From Shigella phage ESh33: 64,000 nucleotides of DNA. Shown here one piece after another: positions 42,272 through 46,486 of the stretch. The translations under genes were made by a program, and so were the position numbers. Position 1 is the first letter of the stretch; the number at the start of each line of letters is the position of its first letter. The stretch lies in sequence record ON528743; one strand, 5' to 3'. The notes under the pieces are model-generated. The model searched no databases. It was not told where the DNA came from and was given only the letters and a program-made list of their open reading frames with translations.

Positions 42272-42865
42272 ATGAACACACTGAAGAAAATTGTTGAGTT
42301 TATTCGCACTAAACTTGGTTCTGCTATGGCTAAAAATTTATCTGTTGAAGAACAGTATACTGCCGCAGCAGCAAAACTACTTGATAAAATTAAAGATCTA
42401 AAAACTGCTTCTGTTAAATCTATTAATGAAGAAAAGCGTATTCGTGAACTTATTGTCGAAAAGAATAAGCAGGCCGAATCAAAAGAGCGTGAAATTCGCA
42501 AGCTTCTTTCGGAAGGTCAAGATGTAACAATGCATGCTAAACTTGGTTTACTATATCGTCGAACAGCTGAGCAGTTGACTACTAAAGCTGATGGTTATGC
42601 TGAAATGCGAATTGAAATCGCCAAGAAAGTAGTTGAGTTAGATGATGCTCGCCAAGAACTTGCAGTTAAATTGGAATATATCCGTGAAACTCGCGCCGCG
42701 AATGCCCTCGGAATTAGTACTGCTGATGATGTAGTTGAAATTGCAGCACTGACTAAGGTTGATATTGAAGATACTCTTGCTCGAGTTGAAACCTTTAATG
42801 GCAATATTTCTGGGGTTGAAACTACCTCTGCCGATGTTCAGGAATATATTAATTCTCTGAAATAA
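42272..42865 (+). CDS. coiled-coil protein of unknown function (197 aa)
   Basis: Charged helical sequence; followed by terminator 42872-42892. Confidence 0.6.
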
Positions 42866-42871
42866 TGATAA

Positions 42872-42892
42872 GGGGCTTCGGCCCCTATTACT
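42872..42892 (+). terminator. intrinsic terminator-like hairpin
   Basis: GGGGC-TTCG-GCCCC, weak T-tract. Confidence 0.5.
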
Positions 42893-42906
42893 TGGAGTAA
42901 GTAGGA

Positions 42907-43512
42907 ATGAAAATGCAAAGTGATTTCAATTCAATGTTTGAAGAGTTCCAAAGACGAGTTGATGTTCCGGACCAATTATTAAATGCTCTTAAACGTATGG
43001 CAGAAGGACGTAATTATTATTGGGGTTCTTCATATGAAACTGATGAAAGTCTTTCTGGATTTTATAAAGGTAAAAAGTCTTTAATACGTCCTGGAATACT
43101 TATTAACAGTATTGAATCAATTCATTCATTAACATGCGATTTTGACGTTGAATTTACTGATTTTGTTTCTCCTGAATGGACGGTCTGTTATTTAAACGAC
43201 GATTATGATTATCTTGGCGTTTATAGTTTAAGTGATGCATGGTTTAAACGTAATTTACAAAAGTCAAATTTATTCTATATTGATACTACTGTAAAATTTC
43301 AGGGCAAGAAATATTTCTTTACTCTTATAGTTGATTCTGAAACAAAGCATGAAAATAAACGTATTCTTAGTAAAAAGAATATCTTAACTATTGTTGATGA
43401 TCTTTTTGATAAATTCGTAGAAAATCCTAATTTTGAAAGCGATTTATTATTAGAAAAATTTGTTAAGGAATGTAGAGAATATGTCAAAGCCATCACTATA
43501 CCTTCCAAGTGA
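42907..43512 (+). CDS. hypothetical protein (201 aa) ending in the shared FVKECR junction motif
   Basis: RBS GGAGTAAGTAGG; C-terminal FVKECREY shared with the next three ORFs. Confidence 0.6.
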   Translation: MKMQSDFNSMFEEFQRRVDVPDQLLNALKRMAEGRNYYWGSSYETDESLSGFYKGKKSLIRPGILINSIESIHSLTCDFDVEFTDFVSPEWTVCYLNDDYDYLGVYSLSDAWFKRNLQKSNLFYIDTTVKFQGKKYFFTLIVDSETKHENKRILSKKNILTIVDDLFDKFVENPNFESDLLLEKFVKECREYVKAITIPSK

Positions 43513-43873
43513 ACCTGTGAAGTATGAACTAAAGCGTCAGCTAATTCCTACTGATGTATTAATAGGTCCTGTGACAGCTATATCATTTGTAATTCTATTG
43601 ATTGTTGGAATGGTTATAGACTTTATGACTGATATTGAATCTGGCGTAATATTTTTGTTAGTATTAATTCTTCCATTAGTAGTTCCATTTTTATTGGTAC
43701 CTGTAAATTGGGTAGGATATTGGTATCAAGGAAGGCATTATCGTAAACGTGTACGTGAATGGAAAGCTCAGTGTAAAAAGATTAAAAAGGAACACCAGCT
43801 TAAACTAAATATGTATGAATTTAATGAAATTATGAAATTTGTTAAGGAATCACGATGCAAAAGCCAAAACTAA
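43481..43873 (+). CDS. two-TM membrane protein, paralog family member
   Basis: ATG 43481 with RBS AAGGAA embedded in the upstream gene's C-terminal codons; two hydrophobic helices then basic tail ...FVKESRCKSQN. Confidence 0.6.
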   Translation: MSKPSLYLPSEPVKYELKRQLIPTDVLIGPVTAISFVILLIVGMVIDFMTDIESGVIFLLVLILPLVVPFLLVPVNWVGYWYQGRHYRKRVREWKAQCKKIKKEHQLKLNMYEFNEIMKFVKESRCKSQN

Positions 43874-44229
43874 ATAAAGTCAAATATTCTTTTTCTGAGT
43901 CATTTTTAATTTTTGCTGTGGCGTTGGCTGCAGCTCTTGCTGGTAGTCTTATTGGATTAATGATTGACTGTATTATTTTAAACATCCGCAGTAACGTCAG
44001 CGGTATAGTAGATATAATAGAAGTTTGGAGTGAACTTCATTATACTATAGCAATTTCATTATTTTCATTCTTTAGTATCATTTTATATTTTCATTATGAT
44101 AATTTTAAAATAAATTGGCAAAGAAAAAAGGATTACAAAATACAATTAAAAGAATATAATAACTACATGTCTTATATTGAAAATGAATCAATGAAAGAAT
44201 TCGTGAATGATTGTAGGAAAATCAAATGA
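43855..44229 (+). CDS. two-TM membrane protein, paralog family member
   Basis: Two hydrophobic helices then NWQRKKDYK...FVNDCRKIK tail; start overlaps previous gene. Confidence 0.6.
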   Translation: MQKPKLNKVKYSFSESFLIFAVALAAALAGSLIGLMIDCIILNIRSNVSGIVDIIEVWSELHYTIAISLFSFFSIILYFHYDNFKINWQRKKDYKIQLKEYNNYMSYIENESMKEFVNDCRKIK

Positions 44230-44695
44230 TTTTAAAAACTCGCTGGTATGATTTAGATGATGGGGACGATGGCATTTCAGTCGATAGAGTTGACTGGAGC
44301 GGCTGTTCTGAAGATACAAAGAAACGATTAATTAGGGAGTTTAGAATGGGATATCAAGCAGTTAAGCCATCTACTGTAACAGATGATAAATTCGTGTGTA
44401 TTCAAAATGGTCGTGCTAAGTTAACGAACGCTGATTGGTTCACAGATAAGAAGGTTATTCTGTGGTATATTATTAGTTTTCCTGTGACATCATTTGTATT
44501 TTGCTTCTTTGGAGAAAGTCCAGTAGGCAGAACGGAAGATTGGATTCTTTTAATTATACTTGTTAATATTTTTACAGCAGCAGTACTATCAGGAATATGG
44601 TGCGTGTTCATTGAAATGCCATGGCGGTTACGTAGACAGCAAAAGATTTTTGATGAAAAGAAATATACTCAAAATTTAAATAATTTTATCACTGA

Positions 44696-44714
<19 letters not shown>
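44226..44714 (+). CDS. two-TM membrane protein, paralog family member with extra N-terminal domain
   Basis: Hydrophobic helices then PWRLRRQQK...FITECRKLK tail; ATGA overlap with previous gene. Confidence 0.6.
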
Positions 44715-45683
<969 letters not shown>

Positions 45684-45688
45684 AGTTG

Positions 45689-45727
45689 TTTACTTTCTCC
45701 TAGAACTGTGATAGTATATTCACAGTT
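45689..45727 (+). promoter_or_regulatory. sigma70-like early promoter for denV with palindrome flanking the -10
   Basis: TTTACT-17-TAGTAT with TG extension; inverted repeat AACTGTG/CACAGTT. Confidence 0.55.
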
Positions 45728-45742
45728 ACTTGGAGGGATAAA

Positions 45743-46159
45743 ATGACTCGTATTAATTTGACTTTAGTATCTGAACTTGCTGATCAGCATTTAATCGCAG
45801 AATACCGTGAATTGCCGCGTGTTTTTGGTATAGTTCGTAAACACTTGGCAAATGGTAAGCGGGTTAAAGATTTTAAAATATCTTCCGAGTTTATTTTAGG
45901 TTCTGGTCATGTTACGTTCTTTTACGATAAGTTAGAATTTTTGCGAAAGCGTCAATCAGACATTATAACGGAATGCTTAAAACGTGGGTTTAGTATAAAA
46001 GATACTGAAGTTCCTGACATCAGTGATATTCCAGCAGAATGGAAAAATGATTATAATCCATGCAAATCAGCTATTAAATTGAGTCAACAACGACTCGATG
46101 AAAAAATTTTAATGAAGCCACACTGGTACAAGTATTACGGCAAAAATATTTACATTTAA
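45743..46159 (+). CDS. denV: endonuclease V (pyrimidine dimer DNA glycosylase)
   Basis: 138 aa; [17 protein letters not shown]...WYKYYGK close to T4 DenV as recalled. Confidence 0.9.
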
Positions 46160-46168
46160 AGGAAACAT

Positions 46169-46486
46169 ATGAAAACGTATAAAGAATTTATTGCAGAATC
46201 TGCCGCAGGACAACGTGTAGAAGGCGGTTATATCTGGATTGAACAAGTTGAGCCGCCAAGTCGCACTTCTACAGGTAAATGGAAAATCACTGTTGATGGT
46301 CCTGGCGGTAAACGTAGGACTCTTAAAGAAATTAACGGGTACTATGAAGAAGCTCTTTCTGACGCGGGTACTTATATGATGCAAATCATGATTAAAAACC
46401 CAGAAAATCGTTTTGCGGCTAGAGTTTTCCGCCGTATTGGAAATAAGCTTTATGATGCATATTCTAAAAACTTCCCTAAAGAATAA
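46169..46486 (+). CDS. internal protein (ipII-like), capsid-targeted
   Basis: 105 aa; CTS MKTYKEFIAE-S with I-A-E cleavage motif; basic. Confidence 0.75.
   Translation: MKTYKEFIAESAAGQRVEGGYIWIEQVEPPSRTSTGKWKITVDGPGGKRRTLKEINGYYEEALSDAGTYMMQIMIKNPENRFAARVFRRIGNKLYDAYSKNFPKE

Follow-up and report, generated by a model that had tools for sequence, protein, structure and literature searches.

A shared C-terminal peptide and gene-junction repeats in the overlapping e.5-e.2 cistrons of Shigella phage ESh33 and other T4-like phages

Introduction

About half of the genes of phage T4 have no assigned function, e.2 to e.6 included. Their counterparts in Shigella phage ESh33 raise the question of why four successive small proteins, one soluble and three with predicted membrane helices, carry the same short peptide at or near their C-termini, and whether this peptide is anything more than the translation of the ribosome-binding site of the next gene. 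We examined this question in a stretch of 64,000 nt from record ON528743 (the window, to which all positions refer). The reading that we favor, with a probability of about one half, is that e.5 to e.2 constitute a package of coupled, co-translated cistrons whose products share a cytoplasmic motif under selection as protein, which would act as a docking or assembly element. A preliminary description of the region had proposed a family of membrane proteins grown by duplication of a unit that carries its own coupling signal, and we weigh that proposal, along with three others, against the same evidence.

A C-terminal motif confined to the e.5-e.2 block

A 3.5 kb region surrounding the block is 99.4% identical to Escherichia phage JLBYU22 and matches 644 phage records, nearly all of them from Tequatrovirus; by sequence identity, the source of the window is a Tequatrovirus and the open reading frames (ORFs) in question are the T4 genes e.5, e.4, e.3 and e.2, followed by nudE. 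Alignment to the annotated T4 genome and to JLBYU22 showed that gene order is syntenic with T4 from e.6 through e. The four genes form a series of early accessory cistrons that overlap one another and close with nudE, with successive overlaps (e.5/e.4, e.4/e.3, e.3/e.2 and e.2/nudE) of 32, 19, 4 and 4 nt:

42907-43512, plus strand: e.5 orthologue, 201 aa, soluble (Pfam Phage_T4_Y06P); 32-nt overlap with e.4
43481-43873, plus strand: e.4 orthologue, 130 aa (Pfam Phage_T4_Y06O); tail ending in FVKESRCKSQN; 19-nt overlap with e.3
43855-44229, plus strand: e.3 orthologue, 124 aa; tail ending in FVNDCRKIK; ATGA overlap with e.2
44226-44714, plus strand: e.2 orthologue, intact, 162 aa (Pfam Phage_T4_Y06M); tail ending in FITECRKLK
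44711-45151, plus strand: nudE, Nudix hydrolase (Pfam NUDIX, E = 7.6e-13); last gene of the overlapping block

A six-frame scan of the window with the pattern F[IV]x[ED][CS]R returned only four matches, all near the C-termini of these four proteins:

43459-43476, plus strand: FVKECR codons of e.5 (TTT GTT AAG GAA TGT AGA); AAGGAA is the Shine-Dalgarno (SD) sequence of e.4
43838-43855, plus strand: FVKESR codons of e.4 (TTT GTT AAG GAA TCA CGA); the last base of the Arg codon is the first base of the e.3 ATG
44200-44217, plus strand: FVNDCR codons of e.3
44685-44702, plus strand: FITECR codons of e.2

In TH09, a close relative with a complete genome of 167,656 bp, the same pattern has five matches, of which four fall in this cluster. 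The consensus can be written as hydrophobic-x-x-F-[IV]-x-[ED]-C-[RK], at or near the C-terminus, and its spacing is such that L, F, I/V and C share one face of a helix. The preliminary description had all four ORFs ending in this motif; it is indeed present in all four, but in the 201-aa ORF it lies 11 residues before the end.

Reach of the motif across T4-like genera

The conservation of the block is best followed from the gene directly upstream of it:

42272-42865, plus strand: e.6-like gene, 197 aa, for a long helical hairpin protein; candidate PspA/Vipp1-like

A total of 1,106 phage records contain e.6, and from Tequatrovirus to Aeromonas phages its identity is 51-100%; the gene is both wider in distribution and more conserved than those that follow it. 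The e.6-e.5 synteny is kept in seven genera, and in every genus examined (at least seven) the gene right after e.6 bears the motif near its C-terminus: FVKECR in Tequatrovirus, FIMECR in Mosigvirus, FIAECR in Dhakavirus, FIKYCR in Klebsiella phages, FINYCR in Karamvirus, FVDYCRR in Biquartavirus and FIHSCKK in RB43. When the proteins encoded after e.6 are compared between genera, the best local alignment is usually the motif segment alone. An alignment of e.5, in which identity to the window protein falls to only ~19% among the distant members, has as invariant columns M1, L28, N97, L180, F185, C189 and R190; the last three are the motif, and L180 lies five residues ahead of it.

Beyond Tequatrovirus, orthologous blocks with motif-bearing genes were found in Mosigvirus, Dhakavirus, a Yersinia phage and Klebsiella T4-like phages. 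Some of the bearers are two-helix membrane proteins: Klebsiella phages have two, of 98 and 108 aa, Mosigvirus has one of 101 aa and Karamvirus one of 124 aa, and in Dhakavirus the bearer is the 195-aa e.2 orthologue. Others are soluble proteins distinct from e.5, namely a 102-aa protein encoded after nudE in Klebsiella phages and a 131-aa protein in Karamvirus. In eight loci drawn from seven genera, the looser pattern [FW][IV]..C[RK] was present in the last 40 aa of 17 of the 120 plus-strand ORFs and of none of the 47 reverse-strand ORFs. A scan of IMG/VR turned up just nine loci. An exhaustive search of 1.84 billion representative proteins with the e.4 profile returned seven clusters (among them the e.4 representative, short fragments, and the chimeric or partial P0098 and P0099), so the e.4 family is not seen beyond close relatives.

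Membrane topology and paralogy of e.4, e.3 and e.2

Kyte-Doolittle hydropathy in 19-residue windows gave two hydrophobic segments each for e.4 (peaks 2.61 and 3.08), e.3 (2.47 and 1.76) and e.2 (2.12 and 2.43), and none in e.5, e.6 or nudE. The predicted transmembrane segments (TM1 and TM2) are as follows:

43556-43621, plus strand: TM1 of e.4, aa 26-47
43643-43708, plus strand: TM2 of e.4, aa 55-76
43903-43980, plus strand: TM1 of e.3, aa 17-42
44035-44094, plus strand: TM2 of e.3, aa 61-80
44454-44513, plus strand: TM1 of e.2, aa 77-96, after a 76-aa N-terminal part predicted to be cytoplasmic
44541-44618, plus strand: TM2 of e.2, aa 106-131

The loops between the helices, predicted to be periplasmic, are short (7-18 residues) and acidic (net charge -2), the C-terminal tails contain 9-15 K+R residues, and the N-termini are also rich in K/R. 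From this charge distribution and the positive-inside rule, we infer that the three proteins are N-in/C-in hairpins with cytoplasmic tails, a topology that would place the motif on the cytoplasmic side. The preliminary description was therefore right in assigning two hydrophobic helices followed by a basic tail to each of the three consecutive ORFs, and the positions that it gave for them are correct; the transmembrane prediction that it called for found two hydrophobic segments in all three.

That description went on to interpret the three genes as whole-gene tandem duplicates whose 3' end bears a ribosome-binding site, with a possible role in superinfection exclusion or lysis timing. Among the alternatives to our preferred reading this one survives best, although as a whole we consider it unlikely, with most of its weight on a paralogy of e.4 and e.3. 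The common architecture of the three proteins and the reality of the junction repeats (see below) favor it, as does the existence of a natural in-frame e.4::e.2 chimera. Additionally, e.4 and e.3 share the start M-x-K-P-x-L, conserved at the DNA level (ATG-xxx-AAG-CCA, family D14), and e.3 matches the e.4 PHROG with E = 0.006.

The alignments themselves are less generous. Pairwise BLASTP among the four proteins, the check proposed for the duplication, gave nothing significant. We also compared Smith-Waterman scores with those of sequences shuffled segment by segment (N-terminus, TM1, loop, TM2 and tail): over the full length, e.4-e.3 and e.3-e.2 were marginal (p about 0.03), and without the last 14 residues none of the three pairs was significant (p = 0.08, 0.89 and 0.61), whereas the tails of e.3 and e.2 alone gave p = 0.0005. 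Similarly, hhalign with first-pass family profiles aligned only the last 12-23 residues (E = 3.6e-5 for e.4-e.3, 3.3e-4 for e.3-e.2, 1.5e-3 for e.5-e.3 and 1.4e-3 for e.5-e.2). Broader profiles, built with a permissive threshold, produced near full-length alignments of e.4 with e.3 (probability 84%, E = 7e-6, 109 columns) and of e.3 with e.2 (89%, E = 2e-6). When the motif plus six residues were trimmed, only e.4-e.3 (22.9) and e.4 versus the 98-aa protein from Klebsiella phages (25.5) scored above a null of reversed profiles (12-17; about 14 for e.4-e.3), and all pairs involving e.2 dropped to that null.

From these comparisons, an ancient whole-gene paralogy of e.4 and e.3 is probable, while for e.2 the C-terminal module alone is demonstrably shared, as judged from the alignments; the idea of a family grown by unit duplication thus retains modest support for e.4 and e.3 and loses e.2. 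The motif also occurs on unrelated soluble proteins (e.5, the 102-aa protein of Klebsiella phages and the 131-aa protein of Karamvirus), so it behaves like a C-terminal module that is portable, and does not mark gene duplication. Likewise, each family has orthologues in other genera; a recent expansion is not seen, and any duplication would have to be ancient.

The functional part of the proposal fares worse. In Pfam, PHROGs and NCBIfam there was no match to Imm or Sp, and profile searches gave none to holin or antiholin (T, RI). The conserved parts of the proteins are predicted cytoplasmic tails, with no periplasmic domains. The RNA of e.2 to e.6 is of the early class, with all the proteins detected during infection (PMC9697503, supplementary tables), and e.2-e.8 is among the seven large fragments whose deletion T4 tolerates (PMC9825161).

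A possible relationship of e.6 to PspA and Vipp1

The product of e.6 looked PspA-like by eye. A single-sequence AlphaFold2 (AF2) model had a mean predicted local distance difference test score (pLDDT) of 74, rising to about 90 over residues 30-140, and consists of a long helical hairpin plus a third helix. In a Foldseek search of the PDB with this model, the ten best matches were all Vipp1/IM30, with E-values from 2.8e-4, about 210 aligned columns and 16-20% identity, and archaeal ESCRT-III (CdvB) and PspA appeared lower down the list; against BFVD, a phage protein named PspA/IM30 ranked 17th. Judging from the model, we give e.6 roughly one chance in three of being PspA/Vipp1-like.

Bacterial PspA-type proteins work with small membrane partners, as in PspA-PspB/PspC and LiaH-LiaI, which suggests that the motif bearers could be the anchors or adaptors of a phage Psp-like module. 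In such a module the motif would be the docking tag of a membrane-maintenance system, with e.6 as the PspA/Vipp1/ESCRT-III-like component, e.4, e.3, e.2 and their counterparts as interchangeable anchors swapped at the junction repeats, and e.5 as a soluble adaptor or regulator. The likeness to the bacterial systems consists of a helical-hairpin protein, e.6, encoded just upstream of small membrane proteins with predicted cytoplasmic C-terminal helices; none of the block proteins matched PspB, PspC or LiaI in Pfam or NCBIfam at E <= 1. We regard this module as doubtful, and somewhat more so than the duplication model. If the resemblance to Vipp1/PspA were true, it would amount to a phage-encoded system for membrane repair or remodelling, new for T4-like phages.

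Selection on the peptide or by-product of a ribosome-binding site

For each downstream start, the best SD-like element lies within or adjoining the motif codons. UAAGGAA (-6.1 kcal/mol) is located 10 nt ahead of the e.4 ATG and 5 nt ahead of the e.3 ATG, on the K-E codons, and UAGGAA or CAGGAA (about -4.2 kcal/mol) is found 6 nt ahead of the e.2 ATG and of the nudE ATG at 44711, on the R-K codons. The suggestion that the DNA of the motif is the ribosome-binding site of the next gene therefore needs an amendment: an SD lies in or beside every motif, but the residues that carry it differ between the two types of junction.

It could then be that the peptide is functionless, an in-frame read-out of the SD of the next cistron, its spacer and the ATGA overlap, or of an RNA operator for a translational regulator. 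Consistent with this, every copy of the motif in the window has an SD-like element inside or adjoining it, and the terminal Lys (AAA) ahead of TGA is there because of the AAATGA overlap. Moreover, TGGATTAGGAG and TGGATTAAGGAG of Klebsiella phages are, owing to a 1-nt difference ahead of them, read in different frames, as WIRS versus WIKE, which looks like conservation at the DNA level.

However, the peptide does not occur at any further gene junction, either of the window or of the complete TH09 genome. Across the orthologous blocks the codons change while the residues stay (AGA, CGA, AGG, CGT and CGC for Arg, TGT or TGC for Cys, TTT or TTC for Phe), and F, I/V, C and R keep their positions although the residues on which the SD sits vary from gene to gene. 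It is also kept where the signal lies elsewhere: in Dhakavirus and Klebsiella phages the SD-like element of the annotated e.4 start lies downstream of the e.5 motif, and in the e.5 genes of these and of Karamvirus, Biquartavirus and RB43 phages the motif persists with the next start or its SD elsewhere or with a next gene that does not overlap; in RB43 it lies about 30 aa before the end of the protein. An account of the junctions in terms of RNA structure was rejected, since shuffled controls fold better than the junction RNAs (z-scores +0.3 to +1.3), which have no conserved structure. The codon turnover, the conservation with the SD elsewhere and the occurrence on unrelated soluble proteins together indicate that the motif is not only a by-product of the ribosome-binding site, an explanation to which we give slightly less weight than to the Psp-like module. 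We infer that nucleotide signal and peptide coexist and that the motif is maintained by selection on the protein.

Far less probable is that the motif acts on the ribosome, as a nascent peptide that slows termination and aids re-initiation, or as a protease site (I/V-x-E) like the cleavage and targeting sequence of T-even internal proteins: in the overlapping cistrons it does lie within ~25 nt upstream of the next start, and F-I-x-E resembles the E-F-I-A-E of the internal-protein leader encoded by the ORF at 46169 (the prohead protease prefers I/L-x-E), but the distance from motif to stop ranges from 1 to about 30 residues, the resemblance extends to just four or five residues and could be due to chance, and the motif bearers are early proteins with membrane anchors, whereas the internal-protein leader works at the N-terminus. 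An operator of the RegA type at the junctions, ADP-ribosylation of the C-R dipeptide and metal binding by the cysteines are further conceivable roles.

Junction repeats and the gain or loss of cistrons

The junctions of the block contain two types of direct repeat, the second of them a stretch of ~21 nt, GAWTGYAGGAAAWTNAAATGA, common to the e.3/e.2 and e.2/nudE junctions:

43456-43471, plus strand: type A, copy 1, AAATTTGTTAAGGAAT, an exact 16-mer at the e.5/e.4 junction (family D9), 100% identical to copy 2
43835-43850, plus strand: type A, copy 2, AAATTTGTTAAGGAAT, at the e.4/e.3 junction; includes the e.3 SD
44209-44229, plus strand: type B, copy 1, GATTGTAGGAAAATCAAATGA, with the SD AGGAAA, the e.2 ATG and the e.3 stop
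44694-44714, plus strand: type B, copy 2, GAATGCAGGAAATTAAAATGA, with the SD, the nudE ATG at 44711 and the e.2 stop

That the junction behaves as a repeated unit, as had been surmised, is seen in phages that lack e.2. In a Tequatrovirus from IMG/VR (L008) and in contigs L018-L021, examined for the e.3 cluster P0125 (163 member sequences), nudE comes immediately after e.3, joined to it by the same ATGA overlap. L008 has a hybrid junction, which on the upstream side of TGCAGGAAA is T4 e.3/e.2 at 100% identity and on the downstream side T4 e.2/nudE, likewise at 100%, such that e.3 ends in CRKLK in place of CRKIK. By its sequence, it is the expected product of recombination between the direct repeats flanking e.2 and, equally, of an insertion of e.2. 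In tblastn searches, 503 records had e.4 at an identity of at least 60% versus 447 with e.2, a rough comparison that would leave about a tenth of Tequatrovirus records without e.2.

A second rearrangement removed e.3. Phage vB_EcoM-UFV05 (L006:3001-3321) and four similar contigs, five in all, contain a natural in-frame e.4::e.2 fusion of 106 aa that arose by deletion, with the crossover in a 10-nt microhomology at the start of TM1 in both genes:

43567-43576, plus strand: TCCTGTGACA at the TM1 start of e.4, fusion crossover site
44480-44489, plus strand: TCCTGTGACA at the TM1 start of e.2, partner of 43567-43576

The T4 reference (L001, NC_000866) shows a smaller change. A 1-nt loss in an A-run of e.2, with the frame restored about 90 nt later, accounts for its annotation as 102 aa and for the 161-nt "gap" before nudE; the remnant keeps the original C-terminal end, which abuts nudE, and e.2 is intact (162 aa) in most relatives.

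We also observed one Mosigvirus contig without e.3 and one Tequatrovirus contig in which e.5 is split by a frameshift into 145 + 92 aa (L008:2917-3532 and L012).

A second tandem family with a shared C-terminal peptide and ribosome-binding site occurs in Mosigvirus, Dhakavirus, Yersinia and Karamvirus phages (L003:3731-4525, L004:3691-4701, L005:3691-4712 and L025:4299-4825). Its members are small soluble proteins ending in G-W-[VL]-S-S-S-x-x-C, with TAAGGAA and the next ATG directly after the peptide and with conserved junction DNA (GGGTNTCCTCTTC...TGCTAAGGAA).

Proposed organization of the block and evidence on function

In the reading that we prefer, the shared short amphipathic peptide would be a docking or assembly element in the cytoplasm, through which soluble e.5 and the membrane proteins are held together or attach to a partner that they share. 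The overlapping cistrons would be translated in coupled fashion and, because the genes overlap, the SD of the next cistron would have been fitted into the motif codons, as AAG-GAA (K-E) or AGG-AAA (R-K). The 16-21-nt direct repeats at successive junctions would be a side effect of this fit, and serve in turn as recombination sites at which whole cistrons are lost or gained in frame with the stop/start overlap kept.

Several points weigh against this proposal. The name docking motif derives solely from conservation, position and amphipathic spacing, and the Cys is not universal, being replaced by S, I or V in e.4 orthologues. In Tequatrovirus the SD overlaps the motif and adds a constraint at the RNA level, and there sequence alone cannot separate the two. 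The family profiles are shallow (Neff about 1.3-2.3), which makes both positive and negative calls of homology weak; the AF2 model of e.2, with TM2 and the tail drawn as one long helix, is of low confidence (pLDDT 54) and was excluded from the fold search. Finally, the domain databases give no functional hint: Pfam, NCBIfam, PADLOC and PHROGs returned no functional assignment for the block proteins, and PDB sequence searches with the e.6 and e.5 profiles produced chance matches only.

The genes are already known as T4 ORFs, and e.2, e.3 and e.4 are labelled "predicted membrane protein" in the T4 annotation. We found in the searchable literature no functional study of the block genes and, in the literature searched, no paper that describes the shared motif or the junction repeats; as far as that literature shows, the cluster-specific motif with its retention in several genera, the double use of its codons as an SD, and the gain and loss of cassettes at the repeats are undescribed. 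From Tequatrovirus to Aeromonas and RB43-like phages, a block-specific and predicted cytoplasmic peptide links one soluble and several membrane proteins, which can thus be studied as one system. The packing of a ribosome-binding site into a conserved peptide also provides a route, through direct repeats, to the in-frame deletion or insertion of cistrons, of which the e.2-less haplotype is a record.

Comparison with known systems

The closest counterparts of the block are its direct orthologues, T4 e.5-e.2, in the same order between e.6 and nudE, from which it differs in its intact e.2 (162 aa, versus 102 aa in the T4 reference). Leaving these aside, the nearest analogues, and as analogies only, are the internal-protein (ip) genes of T-even phages and the PeSL cassettes. 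The ip genes share a conserved N-terminal leader that targets their products to the capsid. Like the e block, they are tandem, fast-diverging accessory genes with only a short terminal peptide in common, the DNA of which lies at the gene boundary as a possible recombination site; there is no homology, however, and the ip peptide is N-terminal, cleaved by the prohead protease and capsid-targeting, whereas that of the e block is C-terminal, overlaps the SD and belongs to early cytoplasmic or membrane proteins. The PeSLs are reportedly mobile regulatory cassettes of hyperplastic regions in T4-type genomes. They too are short repeats at gene boundaries that aid the modular gain and loss of accessory ORFs, but they are intergenic and consist of an early promoter plus a stem-loop, whereas the repeat of the e block is coding and contains an SD, with no promoter excess and no junction hairpin. 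Promoter-like sites were not above chance (26 versus 18.6 +/- 4.8). The likeness to T4 Imm/Sp and to holin T/antiholin RI is limited to their being small phage inner-membrane proteins that are non-essential in the laboratory; the e-block proteins differ in their early RNA, in having no profile matches to them, in conserved parts that are predicted cytoplasmic tails and not periplasmic domains, and in their location outside any lysis or immunity locus.

Annotation of the block and neighboring features

The assignment of the four genes is supported by their homologs. The e.5 product is 95% identical to T4 e.5 and matches phrog_2607 (E = 6e-108), with PF26876 on its orthologues in L006 and L018-L021; e.4 is 85% identical to the T4-type member P0022, and PF26873 was found on all of its 99 homologues. 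For e.3, which has no Pfam family, the match to phrog_2330 has E = 2.3e-61, and one of 45 homologues (from phage PP01) is named "e.3 ... predicted membrane protein". PF26896 is present on 51 homologues of e.2, whose DNA aligns to T4 e.2 over the whole gene except for two 1-nt indels in T4. The three Pfam families, Phage_T4_Y06P (PF26876), Phage_T4_Y06O (PF26873) and Phage_T4_Y06M (PF26896), are sequence-only families of newer releases. In UniProt, e.5, e.4, e.3 and e.2 are Y06P, Y06O, Y06N and Y06M, with the old names msp4-msp7; the old T4 entry L13089 names msp1-msp8 and annotates promoters only upstream of msp1-3, that is, e.8, e.7 and e.6.

Three corrections to annotation follow from the analysis: most relatives have an intact e.2, the second ATG is probably the start of nudE, and names of the sulfurtransferase type are unsupported. 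As to nudE, the ATG at 44711 (MKTLSAG...) is preceded at 6 nt by AGGAAA, overlaps the e.2 stop as ATGA, and is the start used in L13089; the T4-style start at 44696 (MQEIK...) lies inside e.2, without an SD. In the e.2-less phages there is no ATG upstream of the 44711 equivalent, which is their sole possible start, and the true start is likely ATG 44711.

The deposited names for ORFs in 42272-44714 include sulfurtransferase, phosphoserine phosphatase, host specificity protein, DNA primase and head outer capsid protein; having no support in Pfam, NCBIfam or PHROGs, they look like propagated mis-annotations.

Three features lie outside the overlapping cistrons, the last two placed from the alignment to T4 and JLBYU22:

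42871-42886, plus strand: hairpin AGGGGCTTCGGCCCCT between e.6 and e.5, with a UUCG loop; a stem_loop is annotated at the same place in the old T4 record L13089
45189-45683: e (lysozyme)
45743-46159: denV

No T-run follows the hairpin on the coding strand, and it may be an element for RNA stability or processing rather than a terminator; comparable hairpins are found upstream of e.5 in Klebsiella and Yersinia phages. On the other side of the block, and unlike in T4, denV comes straight after e, with ipIII/ipII not between them (45683-46486), and the ORF at 46169 is internal-protein-like, with the leader MKTYKEFIAE.

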